From sequence record MT446423.1: a stretch of DNA of 64,000 nucleotides; one strand, 5' to 3'. Of the stretch, positions 8,969 through 26,755 are shown one piece after another (positions within the stretch are counted from its first letter, which is position 1; each line of letters begins with the position of its first letter). The notes below the pieces were generated by a model. It had not been told where the DNA came from. It worked only from the letters and a program-made list of their open reading frames with translations, and made no database searches. A program made the position numbers and the translations under genes. The stretch comes from Escherichia virus TH58.

Positions 8969-9124
8969 AACCATCTCGAATCACTATAACCGAATAAAAG
9001 TTTAGGTGAATTTTAAGTCGTCAACTTTATGAAAGTTACGTATCTTTGATAGTATCTCGTGCTTTAAGATAGGTCTCTAAATATTATGATATAATAGACC
9101 TATGAATTGAGCTAAGAGGTACTT

Positions 9125-9881: not shown

Positions 9882-9882
9882 T

Positions 9883-10206
9883 ATGACTACCGAGATTATT
9901 GAAAATAAAGAAGCAGAAGATGCAGTAGCTAAAATGCTACAAGAAATCCAAAAGAAAAATGAAGCTGAAGCACGTAAAAAATCTGAAAAGATTCTTAAAA
10001 AGAATCGTTTTGAACTAAACCGTCTTTATGCTCATGCTCAAGAAGCAGCAATTCAAAACAACTTCGAAGCTTACGAATATGCTATTAAGAAATCTCGGGA
10101 TATTCTACGACAACCATATAATGACAAGTTAATTAAAATCCAGTGGATTACTACTCGTCAGGCTATTGAGGACATCATTAATGGCGCTAGTTCAAACAAA
10201 GTTTAA
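9883..10206 (+). CDS. hypothetical protein (107 aa)
   Basis: Track ORF, charged helical-looking protein. Confidence 0.5.
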   Translation: MTTEIIENKEAEDAVAKMLQEIQKKNEAEARKKSEKILKKNRFELNRLYAHAQEAAIQNNFEAYEYAIKKSRDILRQPYNDKLIKIQWITTRQAIEDIINGASSNKV

Positions 10207-10387
10207 ACGTCTTAATCTGAACGCAGGATTCTCCCTTAAATTGGGAGGTCCTCTTTGTGTTAAAATCTCTGAAAAGGAATATCACGACGGTTCTATTACA
10301 GAAATTTGTCCGCCTATTGTAAAGGCAGACCCAAAACAACTCGTGTGGGTTGATTCATTTCAAGTTAAGAAATGGTGGAAACGATGA
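10181..10387 (+). CDS. hypothetical protein (68 aa)
   Basis: Internal ATG of track ORF 10166-10387. Confidence 0.35.
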   Translation: MALVQTKFKRLNLNAGFSLKLGGPLCVKISEKEYHDGSITEICPPIVKADPKQLVWVDSFQVKKWWKR

Positions 10388-10426
10388 GAGAAATCGATTT
10401 AGGTATTTTCTGAGAGGTGATTATGC

Positions 10427-10600
10427 ATGACGAACGACCTGACCTCTGAAAATTTCGATAAAATCCGTAAAGGCAAAGCAGAAAGAATGAGACGTTTTAA
10501 AGAGTCTTATGATAAAGCTAAAGCCGAAGGAACTATTACATACAAGCCTATTCGATTTAAAAGTTCAAATGAGCCTCTGTATGGTGTACTATGTGGATAG
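10427..10600 (+). CDS. small hypothetical protein (57 aa)
   Basis: ORF below track cutoff, read by eye; GAGGTGA SD 6 nt upstream; ends at terminator. Confidence 0.3.
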   Translation: MTNDLTSENFDKIRKGKAERMRRFKESYDKAKAEGTITYKPIRFKSSNEPLYGVLCG

Positions 10601-10626
10601 GAACTCTTCGGAGTTCCTTTTTTTTT
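10600..10626 (+). terminator. rho-independent terminator
   Basis: GGAACTC-ttcg-GAGTTCC hairpin followed by nine T. Confidence 0.8.
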
Positions 10627-10650
10627 GCTTTATATTTGGGATGATAAAAT
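10626..10650 (+). promoter_or_regulatory. putative middle (MotA-dependent) promoter upstream of gene 47
   Basis: MotA-box TGCTTTA, 12-nt spacer, -10 TAAAAT. Confidence 0.45.
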
Positions 10651-10673
10651 GAACCAACTAATGAGGAAAACAT

Positions 10674-10817
10674 ATGATTATATTTTTAGGTGTGACTATA
10701 TTGATATTAGCCTTCTATCTATTCACTAGGGCGTGTTGGATAGGTTTCTTTAGTACCCCAGATGGATTAATTTCTATGGTTTTATTTTGCATTGCGATAA
10801 TGGCGTTAGACTTATGA
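10674..10817 (+). CDS. small hydrophobic protein (47 aa)
   Basis: ORF read by eye; GAGGAAAA SD; stop overlaps ATG of gene 47. Confidence 0.35.
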   Translation: MIIFLGVTILILAFYLFTRACWIGFFSTPDGLISMVLFCIAIMALDL

Positions 10818-11833
10818 AAATTTTGCACTTAGGCGACTTCCATATCGGAGTCAAACAAGACGACCCATGGGTTCAAGATATTCAACGTGATGGTATTCGT
10901 CAAGCAATTGAATACTCTAAGAAACATGGGATTAAAACTTGGATTCAGTACGGTGATTGGTTTGACGTCCGTAAAGCAATAACACATCGTACAATGGAAT
11001 TCAATCGTGAAATCGTTGATATGATTTCTAAAGCAGGCATTCACGTTCATGTCACGATAGGAAACCATGACATGGCGTTTAAGAATACAATAACACCTAA
11101 CACTGTTTCTGAATTGTTAACTCAATTTGAAAACTTTACTATTTACGAGCATCCAACTACTGTAGATTTTGACGGATGTCTGATTGATATCGTTCCATGG
11201 ATGTGTGAAGAAAATACAGGTGAAATCTTAGAGCACATCAAGACTTCTTCCGCAGCGTATTGTGTTGGGCACTGGGAACTGAATGGCTTTTATTTCTATA
11301 AAGGAATGAAGTCTCATGGGCTTGAACCTGATTTCTTAAAGACCTATAAACAAGTCTGGTCCGGCCACTTCCACACAATCTCTGAAGCTGCTAACGTCAA
11401 ATATATTGGGACACCATGGACCCTTACTGCAGGCGATGAGAACGACCCTCGAGGATTCTGGGTATTTGACACTGATGTTGAACGTATGGAATTTATTCCT
11501 AATGAAACAACATGGCATCGACGAATCACTTATCCGTTTAAAGGCAAAATCAATTATTCTGATTATACTAATCTAGCCATACGTGTTATAGTATCAGAAA
11601 TTGATTCAGAGTTGACTAAGTTTGAATCTGAACTTGAAAAAGTAGTTCACTCTCTTCGTATGGTTTCTAAAGTTGATAACAGTGTTGAATCTGATGATGA
11701 CCAGGAAATCGAGATTAAATCACTTCAAGATATCATTAAAGAATATATTGACGCGATTCCAGATATCTCAGATGAAGATAGAGAAGCGCTGGTCAAATAT
11801 TCCAACGAACTTTATATTGAGGCAACACAATGA
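10814..11833 (+). CDS. 47: recombination nuclease subunit gp47 (Mre11-like)
   Basis: Start refined to MKILHLGDFHIG; calcineurin-like phosphoesterase motifs (GDFH, GNHD); 339 aa as in T4. Confidence 0.9.
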   Translation: MKILHLGDFHIGVKQDDPWVQDIQRDGIRQAIEYSKKHGIKTWIQYGDWFDVRKAITHRTMEFNREIVDMISKAGIHVHVTIGNHDMAFKNTITPNTVSELLTQFENFTIYEHPTTVDFDGCLIDIVPWMCEENTGEILEHIKTSSAAYCVGHWELNGFYFYKGMKSHGLEPDFLKTYKQVWSGHFHTISEAANVKYIGTPWTLTAGDENDPRGFWVFDTDVERMEFIPNETTWHRRITYPFKGKINYSDYTNLAIRVIVSEIDSELTKFESELEKVVHSLRMVSKVDNSVESDDDQEIEIKSLQDIIKEYIDAIPDISDEDREALVKYSNELYIEATQ

Positions 11834-12087
11834 CTTTAGATGAATTTAACAATGCTGGTCTCAGGCTTGAAGTCGAAATGGACGTTAAAGATGATGATGG
11901 ATTCGAGAACACTATCAAGTATTGGATTGAGCCGTTACGCGTTGAAGGCAATGAAGTTAAAGCAGTTCATGTCTGCACCGACTGGGCTATTGAATTTAGC
12001 TTTAATATAATGGACAACGATACTCCTGGCTCTATTCTTAAAATGGCTGAAGCATGTATTGAGGACGCGTATAATGACGAAGACTGA
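11830..12087 (+). CDS. hypothetical protein (85 aa)
   Basis: Track ORF between genes 47 and 46. Confidence 0.45.
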   Translation: MTLDEFNNAGLRLEVEMDVKDDDGFENTIKYWIEPLRVEGNEVKAVHVCTDWAIEFSFNIMDNDTPGSILKMAEACIEDAYNDED

Positions 12088-12313
12088 TTATGAAATCCAT
12101 CGTCATGAATTTAGTATTGGTGACGGTTATATTGGTGTCGTTGAATGGACTGAGAATTACGAGGAATCAACTCCTCGTTTCTTTGGAACAATGTATGTTA
12201 CCTGTGAGTACGCACCGGGTGTTGTTATGTATGCAGAACTAGATGAATATTTTGCTGATAGAGATGTCATGTTAAAATATGTAGAGGACTTCATTCGAAG
12301 AGAATACATATGA
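12074..12313 (+). CDS. hypothetical protein (79 aa)
   Basis: Internal ATG of track ORF 12059-12313. Confidence 0.4.
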   Translation: MTKTDYEIHRHEFSIGDGYIGVVEWTENYEESTPRFFGTMYVTCEYAPGVVMYAELDEYFADRDVMLKYVEDFIRREYI

Positions 12314-13998
12314 AATCATTTAAATTAAATCGTGTTCGTTATCAAAACATCATGTCGGTAGGTGGGAATCCTATTGATATCCAATTAGATAAAGTCCAAA
12401 AGACATTAATCACTGGTAAAAATGGCGGTGGTAAATCTACGATGTTAGAAGCCATTACTTTCGGACTTTTCGGTAAACCATTTCGTGATGTTAAGAAAGG
12501 GCAAATCATTAATAGCACGAACAAGAAAGAGCTCTTAGTTGAGCTTTGGATGGAATTCGATGGTAAAAAATACTTCATTAAACGTGGCCAAAAGCCCAAT
12601 ATTTTCGAAATCTCCGTTGACGGTGTTCGTCTTGATGAATCTGCCAGCAGTCGTGACTTCCAAGAAGAATTTGAACGTAGCATCGGAATGTCATACGCGT
12701 CTTTTAAACAAATCGTTGTGCTTGGGACGGCAGGGTATACCCCTTTCATGGCTCTTAGCACCCCTGCTCGCAGAAAACTGGTCGAAGACCTTTTAGAAGT
12801 CGGCACACTCGCTGAAATGGATAAAATCAATAAGTCTCTAGTTCGAGAACTTAATTCCCAGGGACAAGTTCTCGATGCCAAGAAAGATGGTGTTATCCAA
12901 CAAATTAAGATTTATAACGAGAATATCGAACGTCAAAAGAAATTATCTGGTGATAATGTAGCGCGTCTACAGAATATGTATGACGACCTAGCCAAAGAAG
13001 CTCGTTCATTAAAAGCAGAAATCGAAGAAGCTAATGAGCGACTACTTAATATCGTTCTTGATGAAGACCCTACTGAGGCATTCAACAAGATCGGACAAGA
13101 AGCATTCTTGATTAAATCTAAAATCGACTCATATAACAAAGTTATTAAGATGTATCATGATGGTGGCACATGTCCTACTTGTGCATCACAGTTGCACCAG
13201 GGTGATCCTATTGTCTCTAAGATTACCGATAAGCTTCACGAATGTAATCACTCATTCGAGCAACTTACATGTCACAGAGATAATCTGAGTGTCCTAGTGG
13301 ACGAATATAGAGCTAATGTTAAGACTAAACATGACCTTGCATCCGATATTCGTACCAAGAAACAAGCAATGATTGCCACTATTGATAAAGCTAAGAAAGT
13401 TAAAGCTGCAATAGAACAAGCCTCAGCTGAATTTATCGACCATGCCGATGAGATAGCTTTGCTTCAAAAAGAACTTGATAAAATCATTAAAACAAAATCT
13501 GATATCGTTCTTGAAAAATACCATCGTGGTATTATCACAGATATGTTAAAAGATTCTGGTATTAAAGGTGCTATCATTAAAAAATATGTGCCTCTGTTCA
13601 ACAAGCAGATTAACCATTATCTTAAAATCATGGAAGCTGATTATGTGTTTTCTATTGACGAAGAATTCAATGAATCTATAAAATCACGTGGTCGTGAAGA
13701 TTTTAGTTATGCTTCATTTAGTCAAGGTGAAAAGGCACGTATCGATATCGCATTGTTGTTTACATGGCGAGATATTGCTGAAAAGGTCTCTGGTGTTAGA
13801 ATCAATACATTAATTATGGACGAAGTCATGGATTCCGCTACTGATTCTGAAGGTATTAAAGCTATTTCAACAATTCTTAACTCTCTAACCGATGCAAACG
13901 TGTTTATAATTAGTCATAGAGACCATGACCCACAAGCTTATGGACAACATCTTCAAATGAGCAAAGTTGGACGATTTACAGTAATGACTGTTTCATAA
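12310..13998 (+). CDS. 46: recombination nuclease subunit gp46 (Rad50/SbcC-like ATPase)
   Basis: 562 aa; Walker A GKNGGGKST, central coiled coil with CPTCASQL zinc hook, C-terminal signature/Walker B region. Confidence 0.92.
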   Translation: MKSFKLNRVRYQNIMSVGGNPIDIQLDKVQKTLITGKNGGGKSTMLEAITFGLFGKPFRDVKKGQIINSTNKKELLVELWMEFDGKKYFIKRGQKPNIFEISVDGVRLDESASSRDFQEEFERSIGMSYASFKQIVVLGTAGYTPFMALSTPARRKLVEDLLEVGTLAEMDKINKSLVRELNSQGQVLDAKKDGVIQQIKIYNENIERQKKLSGDNVARLQNMYDDLAKEARSLKAEIEEANERLLNIVLDEDPTEAFNKIGQEAFLIKSKIDSYNKVIKMYHDGGTCPTCASQLHQGDPIVSKITDKLHECNHSFEQLTCHRDNLSVLVDEYRANVKTKHDLASDIRTKKQAMIATIDKAKKVKAAIEQASAEFIDHADEIALLQKELDKIIKTKSDIVLEKYHRGIITDMLKDSGIKGAIIKKYVPLFNKQINHYLKIMEADYVFSIDEEFNESIKSRGREDFSYASFSQGEKARIDIALLFTWRDIAEKVSGVRINTLIMDEVMDSATDSEGIKAISTILNSLTDANVFIISHRDHDPQAYGQHLQMSKVGRFTVMTVS

Positions 13999-14052
13999 AC
14001 GCTTTAACACGATGTGGTTATAATGACCACATCAAATTAAATGGAGAACAAC

Positions 14053-14241
14053 ATGGAGTATTCAACCGGCCAACATCTTCTCGTTGTCCCTGAAATTAAA
14101 AAATATGTTTTGACCAATACTTTTTCAGGTGAAGAACATATTGTTACTGAACAAATGCTCAAATCTGCTTTTAAAGATGAGTATAATAAAATAATGTCTA
14201 ATCGCAATTCCGCATGGACAGTTACCGACTTCTACGAATAA
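14053..14241 (+). CDS. hypothetical protein (62 aa), at the T4 45.2 position
   Basis: Internal ATG of track ORF 14041-14241; size and position only. Confidence 0.35.
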   Translation: MEYSTGQHLLVVPEIKKYVLTNTFSGEEHIVTEQMLKSAFKDEYNKIMSNRNSAWTVTDFYE

Positions 14242-14253
14242 GAGAGAAATAAT

Positions 14254-14670
14254 ATGTTTACTACTGCTAAAGGTTTCACTGCTGCTGATCTGAAAGTTAC
14301 TTCTATCCGTACTGACGCTAACCCACATAACCATAATCGTGTTCGTAAAGCATGGGTCCTGCATTGTGATGACGCAAGTGCTAAAAAACTCCAATCTTTG
14401 CCACAAGAAACTCGTTTTATGATTTATGGTTTTATTGATAACGATGTATCTGATATGTGGATTCATCTGATGCGTAAGCACTATAAAGATTCTATTGAAG
14501 CCGGCGGAAAAATCGTTCTTGATAAAGATGGTTCTGAGCGTCTGGAAGATTTCTACTGTGTTGATGCAGACGAACAACTAATTGCAGCCGGCGAAATTGT
14601 TGCTTCTAAAATTCCAGAATATATTGAATCACTGCCTGAAGCTATTAAAAAGCAGATGGTTTCTGCTTAA
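14254..14670 (+). CDS. hypothetical protein at the T4 rpbA position (138 aa)
   Basis: Track ORF immediately upstream of gene 45; assignment by synteny only. Confidence 0.4.
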   Translation: MFTTAKGFTAADLKVTSIRTDANPHNHNRVRKAWVLHCDDASAKKLQSLPQETRFMIYGFIDNDVSDMWIHLMRKHYKDSIEAGGKIVLDKDGSERLEDFYCVDADEQLIAAGEIVASKIPEYIESLPEAIKKQMVSA

Positions 14671-14712
14671 TAAATTTGTTATAAACTTTGAATTGTCTTG
14701 AAAGGAAATAAA

Positions 14713-15399
14713 ATGAAACTGTCTAAAGATACTATCGCTATTCTGAAAAACTTTGCCTCTATTAACTCCGGCATTCTGCTGAGTCAAGGTAAATTTATTA
14801 TGACTCGTGCAGTTAATGGCACCACTTATGCGGAAGCAAATATCTCTGATGAAATTGATTTTGACGTAGCACTTTATGATTTGAATAGCTTCTTAAGCAT
14901 TTTGAGTCTAGTGTCTGATGATGCTGAAATTTCAATGCACACCGATGGCAATATTAAAATTGCAGATACACGTTCCACGGTTTATTGGCCTGCCGCTGAC
15001 AAGAGCACCATTGTTTTTCCTAATAAGCCAATTCAATTCCCAGTGGCTTCTGTGATTACTGAAATTAAAGCTGAAGACCTTCAACAATTGCTTCGAGTTT
15101 CACGTGGACTTCAGATTGATACAATTGCTATTACAAATAAAGATGGCAAAATTGTTATCAATGGTTATAATAAAGTTGAAGATTCTGGACTAACTCGTCC
15201 TAAGTATTCTTTGACTCTTACCGATTATGATGGTTCTAACAATTTTAACTTCGTAATCAATATGGCTAATATGAAAATCCAGCCAGGTAACTATAAAGTA
15301 ATGTTGTGGGGAGCTGGTGATAAAGTTGCAGCCAAGTTTGAAAGCTCTCAAGTAAGTTATGTTATTGCGATGGAAGCTGATTCTACTCACGACTTCTAA
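14713..15399 (+). CDS. 45: sliding clamp gp45
   Basis: Start refined to MKLSKDTIAILKNF; 228 aa; matches T4 gp45 throughout. Confidence 0.92.
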   Translation: MKLSKDTIAILKNFASINSGILLSQGKFIMTRAVNGTTYAEANISDEIDFDVALYDLNSFLSILSLVSDDAEISMHTDGNIKIADTRSTVYWPAADKSTIVFPNKPIQFPVASVITEIKAEDLQQLLRVSRGLQIDTIAITNKDGKIVINGYNKVEDSGLTRPKYSLTLTDYDGSNNFNFVINMANMKIQPGNYKVMLWGAGDKVAAKFESSQVSYVIAMEADSTHDF

Positions 15400-15474
15400 G
15401 TCAAAGCTTTACGTTTAATGTAGTACTATTATGGAGGAGAAATCCTCCAGTTTAATGATAATGAGGAAAATTAC

Positions 15475-17455: not shown

Positions 17456-20167
17456 ATGAAAGAATTTTACCTAACGGTTGAACAGATTGGTGATTCAATT
17501 TTTGAACGTTACATCGATTCTAATGGCTGTGAACGTACTCGTGAAGTAGAGTATAAGCCATCATTGTTTGCACATTGTCCTGAAAGTCAGGCCACGAAAT
17601 ATTTTGATATCTACGGTAAACCTTGTACTCGTAAACTGTTCGCTAACATGCGTGATGCCTCCCAATGGATTAAACGCATGGAAGATATCGGACTTGAAGC
17701 ACTTGGTATGGACGATTTCAAATTGGCGTATTTGTCTGACACTTATAACTATGAAATCAAATACGACCATACAAAAATTCGTGTGGCTAACTTCGACATC
17801 GAAGTAACATCTCCGGATGGGTTCCCTGAGCCGTCGCAAGCAAAACATCCGATTGATGCTATCACCCATTATGACTCAATTGACGACAGGTTCTACGTAT
17901 TTGATCTATTGAATTCTCCATATGGTAATGTGGAAGAATGGTCTATCGAAATTGCAGCTAAGCTTCAAGAACAAGGTGGTGATGAAGTTCCATCCGAAAT
18001 TATCGACAAAATCGTTTATATGCCGTTCGATAACGAAAAAGAATTGTTGATGGAATATCTCAACTTCTGGCAACAGAAAACTCCTGTCATTTTGACTGGA
18101 TGGAACGTTGAGTCATTTGATATTCCATATGTGTATAACCGAATCAAGAATATTTTTGGCGAATCTACTGCGAAACGTTTATCACCACATCGTAAAACTC
18201 GTGTTAAAGTTATCGAAAACATGTATGGTTCTCGTGAAATCATTACATTGTTCGGTATCTCTGTTCTTGATTACATTGACCTTTACAAAAAATTCTCTTT
18301 TACCAATCAACCGTCGTATTCTCTGGATTACATTTCAGAATTTGAATTGAACGTTGGTAAACTGAAATATGACGGCCCTATTTCTAAGCTTCGTGAAAGC
18401 AATCACCAACGATATATTTCTTATAACATTATCGACGTGTATCGTGTATTGCAAATTGATGCTAAGCGTCAGTTCATCAACTTGAGTTTGGACATGGGTT
18501 ATTATGCTAAGATACAGATTCAATCTGTGTTTAGTCCAATTAAAACATGGGATGCTATTATTTTTAATAGCCTTAAAGAGCAGAACAAGGTGATTCCACA
18601 AGGTCGTTCTCATCCGGTTCAACCTTATCCTGGCGCTTTTGTTAAGGAACCTATTCCAAATCGATACAAATATGTAATGAGTTTCGACCTTACATCTCTG
18701 TATCCAAGTATTATTCGCCAAGTGAATATTAGCCCAGAAACAATAGCAGGAACGTTTAAAGTAGCTCCATTGCATGATTATATTAACGCTGTTGCTGAAC
18801 GTCCTTCTGATGTGTACAGTTGTTCTCCTAACGGCATGATGTATTATAAAGACCGTGATGGTGTAGTTCCAACTGAAATCACTAAAGTCTTTAATCAACG
18901 TAAAGAACATAAAGGTTACATGCTTGCAGCTCAACGTAATGGTGAAATAATTAAAGAGGCATTGCATAATCCTAATCTTTCTGTCGACGAACCATTAGAT
19001 GTTGATTATCGTTTCGACTTCAGTGATGAGATTAAAGAAAAGATTAAAAAGTTGTCTGCTAAATCTCTTAATGAAATGTTGTTTAGAGCTCAACGTACTG
19101 AAGTTGCAGGTATGACTGCCCAAATTAACCGTAAATTGCTTATCAACTCACTTTATGGTGCACTTGGCAACGTTTGGTTCCGTTATTATGATTTGCGTAA
19201 TGCTACCGCAATCACAACATTTGGTCAAATGGCTTTACAGTGGATTGAACGTAAAGTTAATGAATATCTGAATGAAGTTTGTGGTACAGAAGGTGAAGCT
19301 TTCGTTCTATATGGTGATACAGACTCTATTTACGTATCTGCTGATAAAATTATCGATAAGGTTGGTGAATCTAAATTCCGTGATACCAACCATTGGGTAG
19401 ACTTCTTAGATAAGTTTGCACGTGAACGTATGGAACCAGCTATTGATAGAGGTTTCCGTGAAATGTGTGAATACATGAACAATAAACAACACTTAATGTT
19501 CATGGACCGAGAAGCTATCGCTGGTCCTCCGCTCGGTTCTAAAGGTATTGGTGGATTCTGGACTGGTAAGAAACGTTATGCATTAAACGTGTGGGACATG
19601 GAAGGTACTCGTTACGCTGAGCCTAAACTCAAAATAATGGGTCTAGAGACTCAGAAATCTTCGACTCCTAAAGCAGTACAGAAAGCTCTTAAAGAATGTA
19701 TTCGTCGTATGCTTCAAGAAGGTGAAGAATCATTACAAGAATATTTTAAAGAGTTTGAAAAAGAATTCCGTCAATTGAATTATATTAGCATCGCGTCGGT
19801 ATCTTCTGCGAATAACATTGCTAAATATGAAGTAGGTGGATTCCCGGGTCCTAAATGCCCGTTCCATATTCGTGGAATTCTGACGTATAACCGGGCTATC
19901 AAAGGTAATATCGATGCACCGCAAGTTGTAGAAGGTGAAAAAGTATATGTTCTGCCTTTACGTGAAGGAAACCCATTCGGTGATAAATGTATCGCATGGC
20001 CTTCTGGTACTGAAATCACAGATTTAATTAAAGACGACGTACTTCATTGGATGGACTACACTGTTCTCCTTGAGAAGACATTTATTAAACCACTTGAAGG
20101 ATTCACATCAGCAGCGAAACTCGATTACGAGAAGAAAGCATCTCTGTTCGATATGTTCGATTTTTGA
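17456..20167 (+). CDS. 43: DNA polymerase gp43 (family B)
   Basis: 903 aa; exonuclease motif FDIEV, polymerase motifs DLTSLYPSII and YGDTDSIYV; sequence matches RB69 gp43 as remembered. Confidence 0.97.
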   Translation: MKEFYLTVEQIGDSIFERYIDSNGCERTREVEYKPSLFAHCPESQATKYFDIYGKPCTRKLFANMRDASQWIKRMEDIGLEALGMDDFKLAYLSDTYNYEIKYDHTKIRVANFDIEVTSPDGFPEPSQAKHPIDAITHYDSIDDRFYVFDLLNSPYGNVEEWSIEIAAKLQEQGGDEVPSEIIDKIVYMPFDNEKELLMEYLNFWQQKTPVILTGWNVESFDIPYVYNRIKNIFGESTAKRLSPHRKTRVKVIENMYGSREIITLFGISVLDYIDLYKKFSFTNQPSYSLDYISEFELNVGKLKYDGPISKLRESNHQRYISYNIIDVYRVLQIDAKRQFINLSLDMGYYAKIQIQSVFSPIKTWDAIIFNSLKEQNKVIPQGRSHPVQPYPGAFVKEPIPNRYKYVMSFDLTSLYPSIIRQVNISPETIAGTFKVAPLHDYINAVAERPSDVYSCSPNGMMYYKDRDGVVPTEITKVFNQRKEHKGYMLAAQRNGEIIKEALHNPNLSVDEPLDVDYRFDFSDEIKEKIKKLSAKSLNEMLFRAQRTEVAGMTAQINRKLLINSLYGALGNVWFRYYDLRNATAITTFGQMALQWIERKVNEYLNEVCGTEGEAFVLYGDTDSIYVSADKIIDKVGESKFRDTNHWVDFLDKFARERMEPAIDRGFREMCEYMNNKQHLMFMDREAIAGPPLGSKGIGGFWTGKKRYALNVWDMEGTRYAEPKLKIMGLETQKSSTPKAVQKALKECIRRMLQEGEESLQEYFKEFEKEFRQLNYISIASVSSANNIAKYEVGGFPGPKCPFHIRGILTYNRAIKGNIDAPQVVEGEKVYVLPLREGNPFGDKCIAWPSGTEITDLIKDDVLHWMDYTVLLEKTFIKPLEGFTSAAKLDYEKKASLFDMFDF

Positions 20168-20207: not shown

Positions 20208-20843
20208 ATGAAAACTACTCCTATTACTATCGCTATTGACGCAATCATAAAACAAGCTTCTTCTTTGGCCGCTATGGCCAAAGTAATTAGTCAAAACCCT
20301 GCTCGTTATAATGCTATTCTAGAAACTCTTCGACGCCCAGGACTTAGTAATTATGAAAGTCGTGTAATTATTACAGGTGTTGGTAAGAACGCTAATATCG
20401 CAACTAAAGCTTCTGAGACTTTTGCTTCATTAGGTATTCCTAGCATGTATTTGAACACCGGGCATTATTCTCACGGCGATGCAGGATTCATTGCGCCTAA
20501 TGATGTGTTGATTCATATTAGTCGTTCTGGTAAAACTGAAGAAATGATAGGCGTGGCTAAGCATCTTAAAATGATTCGTCCGAACGTCAAACAGATTCTG
20601 TTGCATTGTAACCCAGACATTCCACAAGAAAATGAAGCCCTTTTTGATTACTCTTTCTGTACAGGCATCGCAGTAGAGGTTGATGAGAATTCTCTGGCTC
20701 CGACTATGTCCACTACATTGTTGTTAGCGCTTATCGATACGTTTGCTATCAACCTTTCGTCTGAACGTGGATTTACCTCTAATGACTTCCTTAAGTTCCA
20801 CCCTGGTGGTGCACTAGGTGCCATGTTACGAGGCGAACAATGA
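20208..20843 (+). CDS. SIS-domain sugar-phosphate isomerase, arabinose-5-phosphate isomerase-like (no CBS domains)
   Basis: GVGKNANIATKASETFASLGIPSMYL..HGDAGFIAPNDVLIHISRSGKTEE matches the KdsD/KpsF/GutQ SIS signature; not found at this locus in T4. Confidence 0.8.
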   Translation: MKTTPITIAIDAIIKQASSLAAMAKVISQNPARYNAILETLRRPGLSNYESRVIITGVGKNANIATKASETFASLGIPSMYLNTGHYSHGDAGFIAPNDVLIHISRSGKTEEMIGVAKHLKMIRPNVKQILLHCNPDIPQENEALFDYSFCTGIAVEVDENSLAPTMSTTLLLALIDTFAINLSSERGFTSNDFLKFHPGGALGAMLRGEQ

Positions 20844-20983
20844 AAGCAATAACAATAGGACTTTTACTATTGATGCTTGTCATGACTATCTACTGGAGCT
20901 TAACGGCTCCAGTAATGATTCCAACACTTGTAATCGGATGGATTATGATTGGACTACAAGCAAAGTATGAATGCTTTAACTAG
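20840..20983 (+). CDS. small hydrophobic protein (47 aa)
   Basis: ORF read by eye; ATG overlaps stop of the SIS gene; two predicted TM segments. Confidence 0.3.
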   Translation: MKAITIGLLLLMLVMTIYWSLTAPVMIPTLVIGWIMIGLQAKYECFN

Positions 20984-20996
20984 AATAGTGTACAAT
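20970..20996 (+). promoter_or_regulatory. putative middle promoter upstream of nucleotidyltransferase-kinase gene
   Basis: MotA-box aaTGCTTTA, 12-nt spacer, -10 TACAAT. Confidence 0.45.
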
Positions 20997-21024
20997 ACTC
21001 CTACTTACCAATGAGGACCACAAC

Positions 21025-22710
21025 ATGAAAAAAGCTGTTATTCTTGGTGCTGGACTGGCAACTCGTTTGTATCCAATAACGCATCATATTCCTAAGGTGC
21101 TTGTTAACTATAAACAAGACACTATTCTGAGCAATTTGTATACAATTTATTCTGACCTTGGCGCAGATGAAATTATTGTAGTAGTTCATTCAAAATTTGC
21201 TGAAACCGTTCGAGCTTATTGTGAGCAAGAAGGGTTCAATGTGACTATTCGTACAGTTGATGAAGCATATGGTTCTGCTTATGCTCTTGCTAAATTGCAC
21301 AAAGATTTAGACGGTCATAATGTAATTGTTAACTGGTGTGATATTATTCCCGATTTTGGTTCATGGTCTTGGAATGTTAACGCAATCTATGTTAAGGGTG
21401 ACGAATGTCGATATAATTTCGACGGTGAAAATATCACTAACGTAGGTTCAACAGGTGGTAATGTTGTAGGAATTTATCAGTTCAAAGACTGGGAATTCTA
21501 TATGGGTTCTACTGATGAGGAAATTCATGAATACTGCAAAGGACGTGATTTCGTAGAATTCCTTTACGGCAGCGCATTCAATAAATCAGAGCTTATGAAT
21601 CTAATTGATTTAGGTGATATGCCTAAACTTGAAAAGGCTCATGAAGTTCGTGAACTTAATCGTAGTTTTAATGCGGTTGAAATTGGTGAAGAAACTGTAA
21701 CTAAATTCGCATTAACCGAACAGGGCCGATCTCTTCAGAAAGATGAGATTTCATGGTATCTTAAAGTGAAATCAGATTCAGTTCCTCAGTTAGTTTCTGT
21801 TAATGAAAATAACTTTGAAATGGAACGCATTAAAGGTAAGCCGGCATTTGAATATATTAAATCCAAATCGAGTCTTGCTCGTCCACAAATTGTTGATGCA
21901 ATTTTAGATGCACTGAAATTCAGCACAGACACTTATTTTGTAAGTCCTGAAACTGTTCGTCGTGATTTCACTAAAGAATTCTATACTAAAGTCATCGATC
22001 GTTGTGAAAGTATTCAACCATTGATTGATTCATTTGGTAAAATCACACATGTGAACTACACTAAGATTGGACGTCTGAAGCCAATGTTGAAACAAGCTTT
22101 AGAACACCTTATTCGTTATCATAACCGTTCTCAGGGACAGTACTCTGTTATTCATGGTGACCCGAACTTCAGTAATACTATGATTACTGATAATGGTGAA
22201 GTAAAGTTTATCGACCCTCGTGGATATTTTGGTGAAACCAAGATTTACGGGCCAAAATTGTATGACGAAGCTAAAGTGCTTTACGCTGTTTCAGGTTATG
22301 ATGAATTCAACGCCAATCCGACCTGGGGACAGTTTACTATTGATGAAATAACCTGTAATGTGACTATTAACATCAATCCATTAGTTTACAAATATGGAAA
22401 GATGAGTTCGTTTAACGTGTATCATCATTTGGCAGTGGCAATTATCTGGATTGCATTAGGTGGTTATTTCAAGAATAATCCACTTAAAGCGGTAGCCGCA
22501 TATTATAAAGGTATGGAACTTCTGACTAAGCAATTACGTAACATGGGCCGTGTACTTCAGGACGGCACTATTAGTTATGATGTAGCAGAACCTGTAACGG
22601 CTACTCTGATTACAAAAAATCCTGGTAAATGGGTACTAACTGATAAAGAAACTGGTGTTTCTTATCGTCCAATCGGTGGCGATAACACTCATCAATGGGA
22701 ACGAATCTAA
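21025..22710 (+). CDS. bifunctional sugar-1-phosphate nucleotidyltransferase / sugar kinase (561 aa)
   Basis: N-terminal GAGLATRL nucleotidyltransferase signature; C-terminal choline-kinase/APH-like kinase fold with HGDPNFSN catalytic loop and FIDPRGYF. Confidence 0.75.
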   Translation: MKKAVILGAGLATRLYPITHHIPKVLVNYKQDTILSNLYTIYSDLGADEIIVVVHSKFAETVRAYCEQEGFNVTIRTVDEAYGSAYALAKLHKDLDGHNVIVNWCDIIPDFGSWSWNVNAIYVKGDECRYNFDGENITNVGSTGGNVVGIYQFKDWEFYMGSTDEEIHEYCKGRDFVEFLYGSAFNKSELMNLIDLGDMPKLEKAHEVRELNRSFNAVEIGEETVTKFALTEQGRSLQKDEISWYLKVKSDSVPQLVSVNENNFEMERIKGKPAFEYIKSKSSLARPQIVDAILDALKFSTDTYFVSPETVRRDFTKEFYTKVIDRCESIQPLIDSFGKITHVNYTKIGRLKPMLKQALEHLIRYHNRSQGQYSVIHGDPNFSNTMITDNGEVKFIDPRGYFGETKIYGPKLYDEAKVLYAVSGYDEFNANPTWGQFTIDEITCNVTININPLVYKYGKMSSFNVYHHLAVAIIWIALGGYFKNNPLKAVAAYYKGMELLTKQLRNMGRVLQDGTISYDVAEPVTATLITKNPGKWVLTDKETGVSYRPIGGDNTHQWERI

Positions 22711-23096
22711 TGCACCGTGTAAAAAACATGCTTAATCTTTGTTTTGACGTCGATGATTGTATAACAGAGTGGAATAACAATCGTGATTACGTGAACTTCA
22801 AACCGGACGTCGAAATGGTGTCTGCCATTAATGCCCTGTATGATGCAGGGCATACCATAACGCTTTACACTGCTCGCGGTATGAAGTCAGTCGGTCCTGG
22901 TCGTATAGCAATTGACATTCTCCCAAGTCTGATTCAGAACTTGGCAAACATTGGATTGAAGTACCATAATTTGCTAACACATAAACCAGTATATGATTGG
23001 ATTATCGACGACAAAGCTATGCGTCCTGACGAATTCAAAGCTCTTATGAATAAAGGCGAATTCGAAACATTTAAATCATATAAACCGAATCTATAA
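22710..23096 (+). CDS. HAD-superfamily phosphatase (128 aa)
   Basis: HAD motif I FDVDDCIT, motif II LYTARG, motif IV IIDDKA; start may instead be ATG 22695. Confidence 0.65.
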   Translation: MHRVKNMLNLCFDVDDCITEWNNNRDYVNFKPDVEMVSAINALYDAGHTITLYTARGMKSVGPGRIAIDILPSLIQNLANIGLKYHNLLTHKPVYDWIIDDKAMRPDEFKALMNKGEFETFKSYKPNL

Positions 23097-23150
23097 TAAT
23101 TTAAGTAAGACCTGCAAAAACCATCGCAACAATTAACGCGAGATGCAAAA

Positions 23151-24311
23151 ATGAATACCTTTAAAATCGGAACGAATTTTGATTTAGCTCTTCTTGATAA
23201 AATCGTAGAGCTCAATAAAACTTATCCTAATAGCTTGATAAACGAAGTATACGGCTCTACAAGAGAAATGGCTTTTGTAGCAGCCAGACCTGATTTTAGG
23301 CTTCCTGACGTTGACAAAAAGATGTTAGAAGATTACGTTAAACGTTGTAACGAATTAGGTATTTGCTTTAACTATACACTCAACACGATAAATCCTGGTT
23401 CAAAAAGAGAACTAGTTGAGTGGAAGAAGAAAGCTATTCAGGATTATGTTCAGTATCTTTGGTCAATAGGTGTATGGCGTATTACTATCGCTAACCCTGT
23501 TGTTATGGAAATTGTTCGTGAAGTCAATAAAGACATTGAGATTGAAGTTTCAACAATTCTACATGTCGATGCTGTAACTCAAATCAAATACTTGCATGAC
23601 CAATATAATATCAAAAAGGTCTGCTGTGGAATTCACAAGAACCGTTCAGTTTCTTTCCTGAAGCGTGCAGCAGAGTTTTGCAATAAGAACAATATAATAT
23701 TTGAAGTTCTTGTAAATGAGTTCTGTTCTAATGCTGGTAAAGGGTATACAACACATTGTAGTTATCGTGACTCTTGCTATATTTTCCATAGCACCGATGT
23801 TACAGTAGATGATGCCAAATCCTTAAATGGATATCCAATGCAACACTGTATTAAAGCTCGTGATACAGATCCATTTAACTGGTTGAGAACTCGTTTTGTT
23901 CGTCCTCAAGATTTGAAACTTTATAATGATATTGGTATCACTCAATTCAAAGTTTCAGGACGTACAGGTAGCACAGACTACATTTTGAAAGTTCTTGAAG
24001 CATACGCTTCTGAAAAGTTTGAAGGTAATTTGTTAGAACTGTGGAAGCCTTTAGAGACTATTTTCACTCTTGAAAACGAAACTGAGTTTTCACATACAGT
24101 AAATATTGAAACCTCTTTGTTAGATGGCTTTTTAGAAAAAAGGTGGTTCAAACATCCAGATTTCGATTGTGCTAATGAAATCTGCGGGACGACGTGTACA
24201 TATTGTGAAAGATATTATAAACGTCAGTTATCTAAAAATGGGTTATCAGAAAACTCTATATCTATTATTGATATAACTAACTCTGACGACGCTTTGAGGT
24301 ACCCAGAATGA
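23151..24311 (+). CDS. Cys-rich enzyme of unknown function, possibly TIM-barrel / peptidase-U32-like (386 aa)
   Basis: Alternating beta-strand/helix pattern and EVLVNEFCSNAGKGYTTHC segment loosely resemble U32-family proteins; C-terminal CANEICGTTCTYC cysteine cluster; assignment uncertain. Confidence 0.55.
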   Translation: MNTFKIGTNFDLALLDKIVELNKTYPNSLINEVYGSTREMAFVAARPDFRLPDVDKKMLEDYVKRCNELGICFNYTLNTINPGSKRELVEWKKKAIQDYVQYLWSIGVWRITIANPVVMEIVREVNKDIEIEVSTILHVDAVTQIKYLHDQYNIKKVCCGIHKNRSVSFLKRAAEFCNKNNIIFEVLVNEFCSNAGKGYTTHCSYRDSCYIFHSTDVTVDDAKSLNGYPMQHCIKARDTDPFNWLRTRFVRPQDLKLYNDIGITQFKVSGRTGSTDYILKVLEAYASEKFEGNLLELWKPLETIFTLENETEFSHTVNIETSLLDGFLEKRWFKHPDFDCANEICGTTCTYCERYYKRQLSKNGLSENSISIIDITNSDDALRYPE

Positions 24312-24589
24312 TTTCTAGAAAAACTTTTAACCACCAACTTAATGAAGAGATTTTGACTACGAAAATTAACAGCAACGAACAAATTCTTAAAAAGGCCCTT
24401 ATTGGCCTGTTTGAAACTAAAGCGGCTAAAGTGATTAAAGAACCTGTTCAATTGTAATACTACGCTGATGCATTTCTTCATAGTGTTCTTGGAAATATCG
24501 ATGCTGAAGCTTTACGTTATATCAACACCGCTAAGAAATTCAAATAAGCTTTATGAATTGAGTATATAATAAATTGTATTGAGGTAAAC

Positions 24590-25306
24590 ATGGGAAAACA
24601 TAACACAATGAAATATATTAAAGCCGCAGATTTTCAATCCGCATTTAAAGCTGTCAATCGTGAAATTTTAGAAAACCCGGAATTCGTTACTGATTCTCGT
24701 ATTGGACGTTGTAATGAAATTGGGTCTATGACAGTAGTTGTTGACACTCCATCATCATTCAAAATGACCGACCCACGTATTAACCGCATCTCTTATGAAT
24801 ATGCTGAAGATTTCTGGAAGTTTATGATTTCTGGCGGTACCGACGCAGAAGAAGCATTTAAGGCATATCCTAATGTCGCTAAATTTATTTCTAAACCAAA
24901 ATCAGATGCTTTGCCTGCGAACTTCAACACTTTCTATGGTCCACGAATTGCGGCCCAGTTACCAGCTCTTCTCAAAGAACTTAAAGAGAAACCTAATTCA
25001 CGAAGAGTTGTGTTCCAAATTCTAGAAAGTTCAGATCAGGCTTTGCTTGATTCGGACGAAACACTTGAATATCCATGTACTGACTCAGTGACTTATTATA
25101 TTCGTGATGGTAAGCTTTATACCCACTGTCATATGCGTTCTCAGAACTGTGCTGTTGTTATGCAGTTGGATTTTTATCTCCAAGGAAAATTACTTCATTA
25201 TATCGCTAACGAATGTGGTGTAGAAGTTGGTGATTATACTCATACCATGGTAAGTGCCCATGTGTTTGAACGTGATTTTGATTATGTTAAAGGATTCCTT
25301 GACTAA
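24590..25306 (+). CDS. 42: dCMP hydroxymethylase gp42 (thymidylate-synthase fold)
   Basis: 238 aa; TS-family active-site region PCTDSVTYYIRDGKLYTHCHMRSQNCAVVMQLDF; position between gene 43 and uvsX. Confidence 0.82.
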   Translation: MGKHNTMKYIKAADFQSAFKAVNREILENPEFVTDSRIGRCNEIGSMTVVVDTPSSFKMTDPRINRISYEYAEDFWKFMISGGTDAEEAFKAYPNVAKFISKPKSDALPANFNTFYGPRIAAQLPALLKELKEKPNSRRVVFQILESSDQALLDSDETLEYPCTDSVTYYIRDGKLYTHCHMRSQNCAVVMQLDFYLQGKLLHYIANECGVEVGDYTHTMVSAHVFERDFDYVKGFLD

Positions 25307-26205
25307 TGGCTATTTTCCGCGTACCTATCTTGAGTATGCGGTCTTATGAAACTGGTCAGTATGCTATCCTTAAGGATGGTAACTTCCAACTTCATTTGCA
25401 CCGTGCTAATCCAGGTGATGTGATTACATATCCACGTAATGCATCTGATATTAAAGAATGTGAACGTCTTTTCCCAGAATTTAAGTTTGTTCCATTATGG
25501 TATAAAGATAACGCGTATAACACTCGTAAATATTTCTGGTCTGAAAATGAATTTGTGGTTGATTCATTAATTGCTTATTATGATTGTGATTTTCTAATCA
25601 CAGATATCACTGGATATGACGGCGCTTTTGATGTGGAATTCAATTTCAATATCACTGCAGACCCTAATAAACCGCGTTTTTATATTGACGAATTCTTAAA
25701 AACCGACATGTTGTCGGTTAATCGTTCACTTCAAACTACTGTGTTGAATGAACGTCAAAAGGAAGTGCTGGTTAACGCTGGTGCGGATGGTAATAAGATT
25801 ATCGTAACGCAGAAAGTTATACGTCCTTCCATCATGCAGCGTCTTGTAGGTGATTTGGCTCCTATTCATCTAGATGGTATTTTTCATCCATTTCGAATTA
25901 GTGACCCGTGCTATCGTTTTGAACAAGTGGTTGAATGTGCAATTCAATTAGGTCAACCGCTTTATATAACCGATCCAAATAATAGCTTCGACAGAAATAA
26001 GTATCCTGAAGAAGCGCTGATTCGAATTTTTAAACCAACTAAAACTGAGTACTATCAAATTCTTAAAGGTCGGCCGAAGATTCAATATTTCGAAAATCCT
26101 GAAGAAGTATTCCATCCAGGTCTTGGCGAGTTCATCTACTTTAACGCTTTAATTTCTTCGCCGTATAATATACCTAAATATGAAGATGTCGTAATCGAGG
26201 AATAA
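25306..26205 (+). CDS. putative glycosyltransferase at the beta-gt locus (candidate hmC-DNA arabinosyltransferase), 299 aa
   Basis: Occupies the T4 beta-gt position but is unrelated to beta-gt; C-terminal FEQVVECAIQLGQPLYITD resembles a GT-B donor-binding segment; function inferred. Confidence 0.5.
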   Translation: MAIFRVPILSMRSYETGQYAILKDGNFQLHLHRANPGDVITYPRNASDIKECERLFPEFKFVPLWYKDNAYNTRKYFWSENEFVVDSLIAYYDCDFLITDITGYDGAFDVEFNFNITADPNKPRFYIDEFLKTDMLSVNRSLQTTVLNERQKEVLVNAGADGNKIIVTQKVIRPSIMQRLVGDLAPIHLDGIFHPFRISDPCYRFEQVVECAIQLGQPLYITDPNNSFDRNKYPEEALIRIFKPTKTEYYQILKGRPKIQYFENPEEVFHPGLGEFIYFNALISSPYNIPKYEDVVIEE

Positions 26206-26206
26206 A

Positions 26207-26755
26207 ATGGCTAAAATTATTTTAGTAGATGGCCCGGATAATGCTGGTAAAACAACTTTCATTAATGACATAATGGAAATTAGTGAAAGATATGTAAAGA
26301 TTGATTTCCCTAAACGAACAGTTGACGGACGTTTCGATGTTAAGTCTCGAAATGAAGTTGGTTGTTTCGAAACGATGTTGAATTATTTAGATCCTACTAA
26401 GATTTATCTGTTAGACCGTGGATATATTAGTAACTGGGTTTATGGACGTATTCGTCAAGATGCTGACTCGGTTCTTGACGTTTATGAACAGGATTATGTT
26501 CGTCTTTGCCAAAACCACGATGTGTTCACAATTATTTTAACACGTAACGAAATGACTGAAAGTTTTGAAGACGACCTTATTACTTTGTCTTCATTCGGTT
26601 TTAATACAGTAATTTCATATTTTGAAGAGTTTGCAATCCATAACGAAATCCAAACGTATCAATTACTTAATCATGATGGTGCTAACAAAGTTATAGGATT
26701 TAATGCAAGCGAACGTAATAATTTGATTACAGAAATTATCAAATGGGCTCGTTAA
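26207..26755 (+). CDS. P-loop kinase, nucleotide-kinase-like (182 aa)
   Basis: Walker A ILVDGPDNAGKTT at N-terminus, LDRGYISN downstream; thymidylate/deoxynucleotide-kinase-like architecture. Confidence 0.6.
   Translation: MAKIILVDGPDNAGKTTFINDIMEISERYVKIDFPKRTVDGRFDVKSRNEVGCFETMLNYLDPTKIYLLDRGYISNWVYGRIRQDADSVLDVYEQDYVRLCQNHDVFTIILTRNEMTESFEDDLITLSSFGFNTVISYFEEFAIHNEIQTYQLLNHDGANKVIGFNASERNNLITEIIKWAR

Follow-up and report, generated by a model that had tools for sequence, protein, structure and literature searches.

A peptidase-U32-family gene beside the UDP-arabinofuranose genes of Escherichia virus TH58: a candidate prephenate-dependent route to 5-hydroxycytosine

The closest described systems to the locus considered here are the RB69 (gp45–gp55) and HY126 (Afh) gene clusters. 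Cytosine is completely replaced in the virion DNA (PMC13326640) and arabinose is ether-linked straight to 5-hydroxycytosine (PMC13326640), as was found independently in Mosigvirus NP (PMC13390438). RB69 gp48, a 5-hydroxy-dCMP synthase that binds flavin, makes the hydroxylated nucleotide, and 18O2 incorporation shows that the added oxygen comes from O2 (PMC13326640). We have analysed the corresponding locus of Escherichia virus TH58 (record MT446423.1) in a stretch of 64 kb, hereafter the window, where four open reading frames (ORF1–ORF4; 20208–24311) lie between genes 43 and 42 (Table 1). The window has the same genes in the same order as RB69 and HY126, with identities of 99–100% for the SIS isomerase, 96–99% for AfhE, 98–99% for the HAD phosphatase, 99% for the U32 protein, 99–99.6% for the 5-hydroxy-dCMP synthase and 99–100% for the glycosyltransferase. 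Over the region its proteins are 98–100% identical to those of RB69 and 96–100% identical to those of HY126. It differs in that ORF049c carries a nonsense codon, and in that the RB69 record splits the 561-residue and 299-residue genes. Megablast with the region returned 152 near-full-length phage records, nearly all from Escherichia/Shigella Mosigvirus (best match 98.1% identical; RB69 97.5%), and at this level of identity the window is an RB69-like Mosigvirus, another isolate of the published arabinosyl-5-hydroxycytosine system.

The arrangement recalls the glucosylation of hydroxymethylcytosine (hmC) in T4 (gp42, alpha-gt, beta-gt), with which it shares the neighbourhood 43 ... 42 ... uvsX and the logic of a ThyA homologue that makes a modified dCMP, followed by transfer of a sugar onto the exocyclic hydroxyl. 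T4, however, relies on host UDP-glucose and a hydroxymethyl handle, whereas the window phage must make its own donor sugar and employs a C5 hydroxyl handle. The first-pass annotation of this DNA had taken hmC to be the acceptor; the base is instead 5-hydroxycytosine bearing ether-linked arabinofuranose (PMC13326640; PMC13390438). It had placed the four genes correctly between genes 43 and 42, but the enzyme in the 'gene 42' position is a 5-hydroxy-dCMP synthase and not a dCMP hydroxymethylase. Its remark that T4 has only imm there was nearly right, the T4 interval holding imm.1 and imm.

A second set of precedents comes from peptidase family U32. Escherichia coli RlhA is needed for 5-hydroxycytidine at position 2501 of 23S rRNA and depends on Fe–S biogenesis and prephenate (PMC5727448). 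TrhP is a prephenate-dependent alternative to the O2-dependent TrhO for 5-hydroxyuridine (ho5U) in tRNA (PMC6599085), and UbiU/UbiV stand in for three flavin monooxygenases in anaerobic ubiquinone synthesis, with prephenate as the oxygen donor (PMC10990095). The U32 hydroxylases known so far work on ribosome intermediates, on tRNAs or on membrane-bound polyprenylphenols.

There is a gap in the published phage pathway. No route to 5-hydroxycytosine other than an O2-dependent one has been demonstrated, yet these phages replace all of their cytosine and prey on gut Enterobacteria. We infer that the locus consists of two distinct modules, both serving arabinosyl-5-hydroxycytosine DNA modification. 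In the first (20208–23096), as demonstrated in near-identical phages, the SIS isomerase, AfhE and AfhF turn ribulose-5-phosphate into UDP-D-arabinofuranose (UDP-Araf), from which downstream glycosyltransferases move arabinofuranose onto 5-hydroxycytosine; the ThyA homologue makes 5-hydroxy-dCMP from dCMP, O2 and flavin. In the second, which is ORF4, the U32 protein would hydroxylate C5 of a deoxycytidine nucleotide without O2 or, less probably, make 5-hydroxycytosine directly in DNA. Prephenate would be the oxygen donor, leaving as phenylpyruvate and CO2, and electrons would travel via one or two [4Fe-4S] clusters of the protein. Such a route would parallel the O2- and flavin-dependent ThyA-type synthase encoded next door and could supply 5-hydroxycytosine at limiting O2. 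In most genera a chorismate mutase translationally coupled to the U32 gene would supply the prephenate. The chorismate mutase gene has been lost in this Mosigvirus lineage, and therefore host PheA/TyrA would have to supply the prephenate there.

By analogy with the characterised U32 proteins, we lean slightly towards the view that the phage protein provides a second, O2-independent, prephenate-dependent route to 5-hydroxycytosine. The fuller proposal, to which we would give an even chance, is that this is the first U32 enzyme acting on a DNA precursor, a prephenate-dependent, O2-independent dCMP (or DNA-cytosine) 5-hydroxylase with a small soluble nucleotide substrate, working with chorismate mutase where that is present. 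It would be a backup to the ThyA-type synthase in T4-like phages of facultative anaerobes and the only hydroxylase in a larger uncultivated clade, feeding arabinosyl- or galactofuranosyl-5-hydroxypyrimidine DNA. The new part of the locus would then be its fourth gene, as an application of U32/prephenate hydroxylation to phage DNA modification, a case that we hold to be balanced or a shade better.

The RlhA parallel is the nearest, in that the phage product, 5-hydroxycytosine, would involve the same base chemistry; C5 hydroxylation of cytosine and dependence on prephenate and Fe–S are the features that we propose to be shared. TrhP/TrhO, and UbiU–UbiV versus UbiI/H/F, offer a wider pattern, in which either of two non-homologous hydroxylases can make a given product, one with O2 and the other without it, by way of U32 and prephenate; E. 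coli keeps both arms in each case, and we suggest the same for the phage. They differ from it in that the O2-dependent arm of the phage is a flavin-binding thymidylate-synthase homologue and the substrate would be a DNA precursor; unlike UbiU–UbiV, the phage U32 gene has no UbiT-like or UbiV-like partner. The phage CmoA–CmoX system for carboxymethylcytosine is a precedent for RNA-modification enzymes that draw on prephenate being repurposed to DNA, although it combines a SAM carboxylase with a C5-methyltransferase homologue and yields another product.

The fourth gene and the U32 family

ORF4 matches Pfam Peptidase_U32 (PF01136) with an E value of 6.3e-11 (42.4 bits; cut-off 22.4 bits), and its alignment by hhalign with TrhP/RlhA/UbiU/UbiV has a probability of 96.4% (E 1.1e-9, 208 columns). 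An AlphaFold2 model calculated with 62 homologues (pLDDT 92.8, pTM 0.91) gave as its top Foldseek match in the PDB the U32 protein Mk0906 (5d88; E 1.2e-7), the remainder being generic TIM barrels. The similarity is seen by profile and fold methods only: BLASTP of ORF4 against UbiU and RlhA was uninformative, a PDB sequence search gave no match, and the aligned identity to RlhA is about 17–22%.

E185, C203 and C209 of ORF4 align with E162, C170 and C177 of TrhP, which are equivalent to E161, C169 and C176 of RlhA, residues that mutagenesis has found to be required for ho5C2501 formation. Among 121 members of the family, with identities as low as 48%, C203 and C209 do not vary and E185 is retained in at least 90%. 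Ten Cys residues are invariant or nearly so (C158, C177, C192, C203, C209, C233, C340, C345, C349 and C352), the last four forming a C-terminal motif, C340-x4-C345-x3-C349-x2-C352 (Cx4Cx3Cx2C). Those other than C203 and C209 could complete one or two clusters. E. coli RlhA (YdcP) likewise has the U32 domain, the conserved Glu and Cys pair, and additional C-terminal Cys residues, which are essential in RlhA. It is, however, a protein of 653 residues with a DUF3656 domain that acts on a 50S assembly intermediate, whereas the phage protein has 386 residues, lacks the C-terminal extensions of both RlhA (DUF3656) and TrhP, spaces its Cys pair as Cx5C against the Cx6C of RlhA and the characterised U32 motif, has a Cys tail of its own and belongs to a separate, compact subfamily.

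ORF4 is the most uniform gene of the region. Between the window and five other genera its product is 80–87% identical, compared with 43–73% for AfhE, 46–69% for the glycosyltransferase, 36–72% for the kinase, 60–83% for the C-terminal 400 residues of gp43, 64–90% for UvsX and 69–83% for the ThyA homologue. The ratio of non-synonymous to synonymous polymorphism (pN/pS) is 0.02–0.03, which indicates strong purifying selection in Mosigvirus despite the absence of chorismate mutase.

Judged from its profile matches and predicted fold, ORF4 is a peptidase-U32-family Fe–S protein and not a sugar enzyme. The first-pass annotation had described it as a Cys-rich enzyme completing a four-gene sugar-nucleotide cassette. 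The Cys-rich character is borne out by the ten conserved residues and the cassette by ORF1–ORF3; Pfam, hhalign and fold place ORF4 itself in Peptidase_U32, and it behaves as a separate module. Annotation pipelines would make it a genuine U32 peptidase or collagenase, and PHROG 5757 ('peptidase') and many GenBank labels say as much. We find this scarcely credible, given that U32 'peptidases' have no established catalytic mechanism, that characterised members hydroxylate (PMC10990095; PMC5727448) and that the genomic context is one of nucleotide and DNA modification throughout.

Chorismate mutase and the distribution of the U32 gene

Chorismate mutase produces prephenate. In the Enterobacter phage Entb_45 an 80-codon chorismate mutase gene overlaps the stop codon of the U32 gene, and its product matches Pfam CM_2 above threshold (2.4e-10). 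A tblastn search with it recovered 56 phage records, spread over about 13 genera of hosts, and in each of them the chorismate mutase adjoins U32. The hosts include Klebsiella, Serratia, Yersinia, Enterobacter, Edwardsiella, Erwinia, Proteus, Pectobacterium, Providencia, Morganella, Kosakonia and Shewanella, and some of the phages infect Escherichia/Shigella. The gene occupies the slot between U32 and the ThyA homologue, following U32 in 19 of the 23 T4-like loci. Aligned with E. coli PheA, the phage enzymes retain R11, R28, K39, E52, S84 and Q88, which we take to be the residues with known roles in the E. coli chorismate mutase. CmoA, another consumer of prephenate, is absent from the window and from all T4-like loci, and was found only in the metagenomic locus L006 described below. 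Our literature search found no paper joining U32, chorismate mutase and phage DNA modification.

In the Bragavirus loci (Proteus/Shigella; L012/L013, 6854–7228) the chorismate mutase forms the C-terminal part of a protein of 124 residues with an N-terminal extension of about 45 residues, and is set apart from U32 by two small ORFs. The chorismate mutase of Serratia phage CHI14 (L015) is also N-terminally extended (114 residues).

The pair can be found away from the sugar genes, or missing while those are present. In the Shewanella phage Thanatos-2 the order is AfhE–HAD–ThyA homologue–glycosyltransferase–kinase–U32–chorismate mutase. Dhakavirus IME08, which infects E. coli, and Acinetobacter phage Lazarus have AfhE, HAD, the ThyA homologue, glycosyltransferase and kinase, and lack both U32 and chorismate mutase. 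Among cultured phages, 376 records contain an AfhE-like protein (57 of them from Acinetobacter) and 221 of the 376 contain U32, all copies being at least 80% identical. Acinetobacter is a strict aerobe, and neither the organism summary of the U32 records nor the rows sampled from them showed any of its phages. Even so, arabinosylated 5-hydroxycytosine is present in the Acinetobacter phages DLP3 and Maestro, in DLP3 as tri-arabinosyl-5-hydroxycytosine (PMC13326640), so that the sugar can be made and transferred without U32. Another loss in the T4-like phages of Acinetobacter is that of nrdG, the anaerobic ribonucleotide reductase gene (PMC4177764). From this distribution U32 and chorismate mutase form a module that is separate from the sugar genes and moves as a unit.

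Genes for segB-like homing endonucleases occur inside the cassette of some relatives (record PQ480333). In CHI14 one lies between HAD and U32 (5078–5716), and because an endonuclease gene has been inserted there, we regard the junction of the sugar genes and U32 as a recombination-permissive boundary.

Uncultivated relatives and the weighing of alternatives

U32 homologues at 40–58% identity to ORF4 are abundant in metagenomes. At E ≤ 1e-30 the ORF4 subfamily comprises 477 clusters (50% identity) among 1.84 billion representatives, a search that did not pick up the canonical U32 families. We considered 37 non-redundant loci of this distant clade, many on viral contigs of 130–290 kb, scanning them with a protein panel and hidden Markov models (HMMs) and confirming the assignments with Pfam/NCBIfam.

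The link to aromatic metabolism recurs in this clade. A standalone chorismate mutase follows U32 in six of the 37 loci, and a DAHP synthase adjoins U32 in seven, five times with a fused chorismate mutase domain; 13 of the loci have one or other of these, or the fusion, next to U32. The DAHP synthase of L008 scores 2.6e-70 against its NCBIfam profile, compared with 3e-17 for Kdo8P synthase. In L051 the enzyme is a DAHP-synthase/CM_2 fusion and the gene order is glycosyltransferase–Tmk-like–SIS–AfhE–DAHP synthase/chorismate mutase–HAD-like–U32. Every element of the window's cluster is present there except the ThyA-type hydroxylase.

A dedicated HMM detected a ThyA-family gene in only one of the 37 loci (L038, E 2e-75), with nothing else under E = 0.5, and when the unlabelled neighbours were searched against Pfam they proved to be HAD-like, Tmk-like, radical-SAM-like, exonuclease and glycosyltransferase-like, with no other hydroxylase among them. 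The hydroxylation step in this clade therefore looks like a case of non-orthologous displacement. The same observation bears on the possibility that U32 assists the ThyA-type synthase or the sugar pathway as a redox accessory, for example an Fe–S reductase that regenerates reduced flavin. Such a role would suit an Fe–S protein whose conserved Cys residues are numerous enough for two clusters and whose gene adjoins the ThyA homologue in most T4-like genomes; Table 1 of PMC13326640, a paper that does not mention U32, prephenate or chorismate, lists the gene once as a 'sugar or heterocycle reductase'. Against it stand the 36 distant loci that carry U32 and have no ThyA-family gene within ±10 kb, the Acinetobacter and Dhakavirus phages that use the ThyA-type enzyme without U32, and the activity of the recombinant ThyA homologue in E. 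coli without the phage U32 protein (PMC13326640). A connection to chorismate mutase and DAHP synthase would, moreover, make no sense for a flavin reductase, and we consider an accessory role quite unlikely.

An immediate neighbour of U32 in 26 of the 37 loci is a homologue of the 299-residue putative first arabinosyltransferase of the window, the genes often overlapping. The remaining neighbours include dCMP deaminase, dCTP deaminase/dUTPase, Tmk-like kinases, deoxynucleoside kinase (dNK), NT5C, UDG and DNA polymerase III alpha. The tight coupling to a DNA glycosyltransferase could mean that U32 hydroxylates cytosine in DNA after replication, as a 'clean-up' or an alternative polymer-level hydroxylase comparable to RlhA and TrhP. 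All the known nucleic-acid-directed U32 proteins do act on polymers, namely rRNA and tRNA (PMC5727448; PMC6599085). The phage protein, however, lacks the C-terminal extensions of those enzymes, the frequent neighbours (dCMP deaminase, Tmk-like kinases, dNK, NT5C, dCTP deaminase/dUTPase) handle mononucleotides, and the dNTP pool offers a simpler way to replace all the cytosine of virion DNA. We therefore judge polymer-level hydroxylation unlikely and prefer a mononucleotide substrate, because of the nucleotide-enzyme neighbours and the absent RNA-binding extensions.

T4-like phages carry tRNA genes, which counts for another possibility, that U32 and chorismate mutase modify RNA (ho5U34 in tRNAs of the phage or the host, or ho5C in rRNA) and so tune translation during infection. 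TrhP and RlhA are documented RNA-modifying enzymes (PMC6599085; PMC5727448), and prephenate also feeds CmoA for cmo5U. We regard this as very unlikely. U32 of cultured phages is confined to genera with the arabinosyl-5-hydroxycytosine cluster and always lies inside or beside it, the distant homologues overlap DNA glycosyltransferase genes, the RNA-associated C-terminal domains are missing, and neither CmoA nor CmoB was found nearby, apart from CmoA in L006.

AfhE-like genes are present in 17 of the 37 distant loci and SIS in ten. This co-occurrence, together with the contiguity of U32 with the sugar genes on one strand of the window, would fit a single sugar-nucleotide pathway of four genes in which U32 performs an extra pentose step, and a GenBank record from the BASEL collection (H51) is annotated 'putative enzyme involved in UDP-arabinose biosynthesis'. 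In the account of the HY126 work given in PMC13326640, however, AfhE and AfhF alone turn arabinose-5-phosphate into UDP-Araf, and 5-hydroxycytosine bearing one to three arabinoses is made by Acinetobacter phages that have no U32. In L018, L044 and L039, U32 is accompanied by TAGT-type glycosyltransferases and/or UDP-galactopyranose mutase, not by arabinose genes; these and L019, L043, L049, L052 and L065 are clusters of galactofuranose type or without a sugar-activation gene. The Thanatos-2 gene, too, stands apart from the sugar genes and still next to chorismate mutase. An extra sugar step for U32 thus seems to us most unlikely.

A number of observations weigh against a second hydroxylase. 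The ThyA homologue alone suffices for 5-hydroxydeoxycytidine in aerobic E. coli (PMC13326640), and E. coli Dhakaviruses do without U32, so that it is not obligatory in facultative anaerobes; few independent evolutionary events underlie the correlation with host and oxygen. A profile of six phage chorismate mutases found none in the six frames of the 64 kb window. Of the four canonical [4Fe-4S] ligands (CX6CX15CX3-4C, or C169/C176/C193/C232 of UbiU), just two align in ORF4, the third and fourth Cys having no aligned counterpart in hhalign. As the distant loci were viewed over ±10 kb, other parts of those genomes could hold a ThyA-type gene, and because of their AfhE-like genes association alone only partly separates a role on the base from one on the sugar. 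Finally, no U32 protein has yet been reconstituted in vitro as a hydroxylase (PMC10990095), and our literature search found no biochemical or genetic test of a phage U32 protein.

If U32 does hydroxylate a cytosine nucleotide, an O2-independent route would explain how a gut phage continues to replace its cytosine when O2 is scarce, and prephenate-dependent U32 hydroxylation would extend from RNA and quinones to DNA precursors. A hydroxylase would also be identified for a subfamily of 477 clusters whose genes, in 37 distant loci, lie among those for DNA glycosyltransferases and hardly ever near one for a ThyA-type enzyme. With dCMP as its substrate, a phage enzyme would make the in vitro study of prephenate as an oxygen donor far easier. 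In phage therapy, oxygen and the aromatic amino-acid metabolism of the host could govern DNA modification and, with it, the escape from restriction and CRISPR.

Some members of the distant clade have features of their own. Our search for Rosetta-stone fusions in the longer members of the U32 family found just an intein and a DUF2621. The intein (Intein_splicing/Hint) interrupts P0180, a subfamily member of 699 residues; inteins typically occupy conserved sites of essential replication and nucleotide-metabolism enzymes. Locus L006 (ENA contig LEMO22-1 scaffold_150, 8001–15428) has a pair of divergent U32 paralogues and also encodes NT5C, a deoxynucleoside kinase, a radical-SAM/SPASM protein and proteins resembling an NMN transporter, a nucleoside 2-deoxyribosyltransferase and the methyltransferase CmoA. 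An adjoining dockerin/GH43 gene suggests an anaerobic cellulolytic Firmicute as its host, and the locus may represent a different nucleoside-level modification or salvage system. Radical-SAM or radical-SAM/SPASM-like genes lie within a few kb of U32 in L005, L019, L051 and L006; their products might mature or partner the Fe–S protein, or modify the base further.

Sugar-donor genes and neighbouring features

The ORF list of the window confirms all four ORFs and their common plus strand (Table 1). An in-frame ATG at 22695 would extend ORF3 to 133 residues. The GC content of the region (35–40%) is like that of the flanks. Against HY126, pN/pS is 0.02–0.05 for SIS, HAD and U32, the same as for gp43, with 18–26 synonymous and one to three non-synonymous differences in the cassette genes; given such low ratios, the four are constrained coding genes and not chance ORFs. 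A scan of the cassette for sigma-70 promoters and terminators gave nothing exceeding shuffled controls.

Table 1. Positions of the cassette genes and their neighbours in the window
Feature	Position	Strand	Length	Remark
gp43 DNA polymerase, RB69-type	17456–20167			Upstream of ORF1–ORF4
ORF1, SIS arabinose-5-phosphate isomerase	20208–20843	+	211 residues	
47-residue strongly hydrophobic ORF	20840–20983	+	47 residues	Overlaps the SIS stop codon (ATGA)
ORF2, nucleotidyltransferase/kinase	21025–22710	+	561 residues	AfhE orthologue
ORF3, HAD phosphatase	22710–23096	+	128 residues	AfhF orthologue
ORF4, peptidase-U32-family Fe–S protein	23151–24311	+	386 residues	RB69 gp50 orthologue
ORF049c, disrupted	24308–24547	+		GAA->TAA nonsense codon at 24455–24457
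ThyA-family 5-hydroxy-dCMP synthase	24590–25306	+		'Gene 42' position; downstream of ORF1–ORF4
Putative first DNA arabinosyltransferase	25306–26205	+	299 residues	RB69 gp46:47 orthologue
Thymidylate-kinase-like nucleotide kinase	26207–26755	+		RB69 gp45 orthologue; P-loop; PHROG 'thymidylate kinase' 5e-45

ORF1 matches Pfam SIS (1e-10; 41.9 bits, cut-off 25 bits) and the PHROG family 'arabinose 5-phosphate isomerase' (4e-116). The NCBIfam KpsF/KdsD/GutQ profiles also align, at 2e-32 to 9e-23, through the SIS portion alone: ORF1 lacks the C-terminal tandem CBS domains, it matches profile positions of about 2–200 out of about 270–330, and its scores of 81–113 bits are far under the curated cut-offs of 204–505. 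ORF1, the orthologue of RB69 gp55, is identical (100%) to ORF055c of RB69 and 99.1% identical to its HY126 counterpart. The isomerase is structurally similar to the arabinose-5-phosphate isomerase 3etn (PMC13326640). It is an optional component, missing from the Marfavirus, Thanatos and Dhakavirus loci.

ORF2 is 96.1% identical to HY126 AfhE over its full length. Residues 3–99 match Pfam NTP_transferase (8.5e-10) and residues 308–409 give weak APH/choline-kinase-like matches (1.7e-3 to 3.4e-2); its sequence match in the PDB is the cytidylyltransferase LicC (1jyk), and the translation contains GxGxxTRL, HGDxxxxN (HGDPNFSN) and IDPRG motifs. ORF3 has no Pfam match. It resembles the NCBIfam HAD-type capsule-biosynthesis phosphatase TIGR01689 (4e-13, with a score under the curated cut-off of 162), displays the DxD motif FDVDDCIT and is 99.2% identical to its HY126 counterpart and 98.4% to RB69 gp51. 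The HAD phosphatase gene adjoins AfhE in all 23 of the T4-like loci.

ORF055c and the fused ORF053_052c of RB69 were named as candidate UDP-arabinose genes by Thomas et al. (2018; PMC6024577). The HY126 AfhE/AfhF pathway has since been biochemically reconstituted by He et al. (2026), as relayed by Lee et al. (2026; PMC13326640). In that account the isomerase converts ribulose-5-phosphate to Araf-5-phosphate, the kinase domain of AfhE produces Araf-1,5-bisphosphate, the phosphatase AfhF leaves Araf-1-phosphate and the nucleotidyltransferase domain of AfhE forms UDP-Araf (PMC13326640). UDP-Araf was the active donor for the glycosyltransferases of phage DLP3 in vitro (PMC13326640). Judged by sequence, ORF1–ORF3 are this published UDP-D-arabinofuranose pathway, and the sugar-donor part of the locus is already known.

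Much of the first-pass annotation holds for these genes. Its SIS, nucleotidyltransferase plus kinase and HAD assignments are upheld by the Pfam/NCBIfam profile searches, and the 96–100% identity to the RB69/HY126 pathway proteins agrees with its claim that the three make a nucleotide-activated arabinose for DNA modification. That they suffice for the donor pathway accords with the HY126 reconstitution as reported in PMC13326640. It had supposed dephosphorylation to free arabinose followed by anomeric phosphorylation; in the order given in that report the kinase precedes the phosphatase. An activated arabinose was correct as the donor, and the nucleotide, which it had called undeterminable from sequence, is now known to be UDP.

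The HAD phosphatase (PHROG 1238) is commonly mis-annotated as 'phosphoheptose isomerase', AfhE as 'GlmU' and U32 as 'peptidase' or 'collagenase-like protease', and through these labels automated annotation has hidden the pathway. AfhE (561 residues) and the glycosyltransferase (299 residues) are each one intact ORF in the window. The RB69 record AY303349 splits both (ORF053c/052c and ORF047c/046c), and the window agrees with the published view that these are sequencing errors.

Downstream of ORF4, the ThyA-family protein matches Pfam Thymidylat_synt (2.4e-15) and is 99.6% identical to RB69 gp48 and 99.2% to the HY126 enzyme. The putative arabinosyltransferase has no Pfam match, belongs to PHROG 3891 and is 99–100% identical to RB69 ORF047c+046c; an arabinosyltransferase role for RB69 gp46:47 was proposed in PMC13326640. 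The thymidylate-kinase-like protein is 100% identical to that of HY126 (99–100% across RB69/HY126), and the RB69 gp45 orthologue is listed as a nucleotide kinase in Table 1 of PMC13326640.

ORF049c (PHROG 8601) occupies the slot between U32 and the ThyA homologue in which other genera have chorismate mutase. It is intact (79 residues) in RB69 and in a second Mosigvirus, L022; HY126 is frameshifted by two 1-nt insertions, and the disruptions in the window and in HY126 are independent. Its pN/pS is 0.25–0.5. We considered ORF049c as a decayed chorismate mutase and rejected the idea, as it has no Pfam match, an hmmsearch E value of 0.15 and an hhalign probability of 0.1–0.2%.

The 47-residue ORF that overlaps the end of ORF1 shows no significant similarity to the Imm proteins of T4 and IME08. 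It matches PHROG 3610 (7e-27), is 100% identical in RB69, 98% in HY126 and 64–66% in Kanagawavirus/Winklervirus, and has a pN/pS of 0–0.14, and it is probably a real small membrane protein. RB69 annotates just a shorter ORF, ORF054c, at this position.

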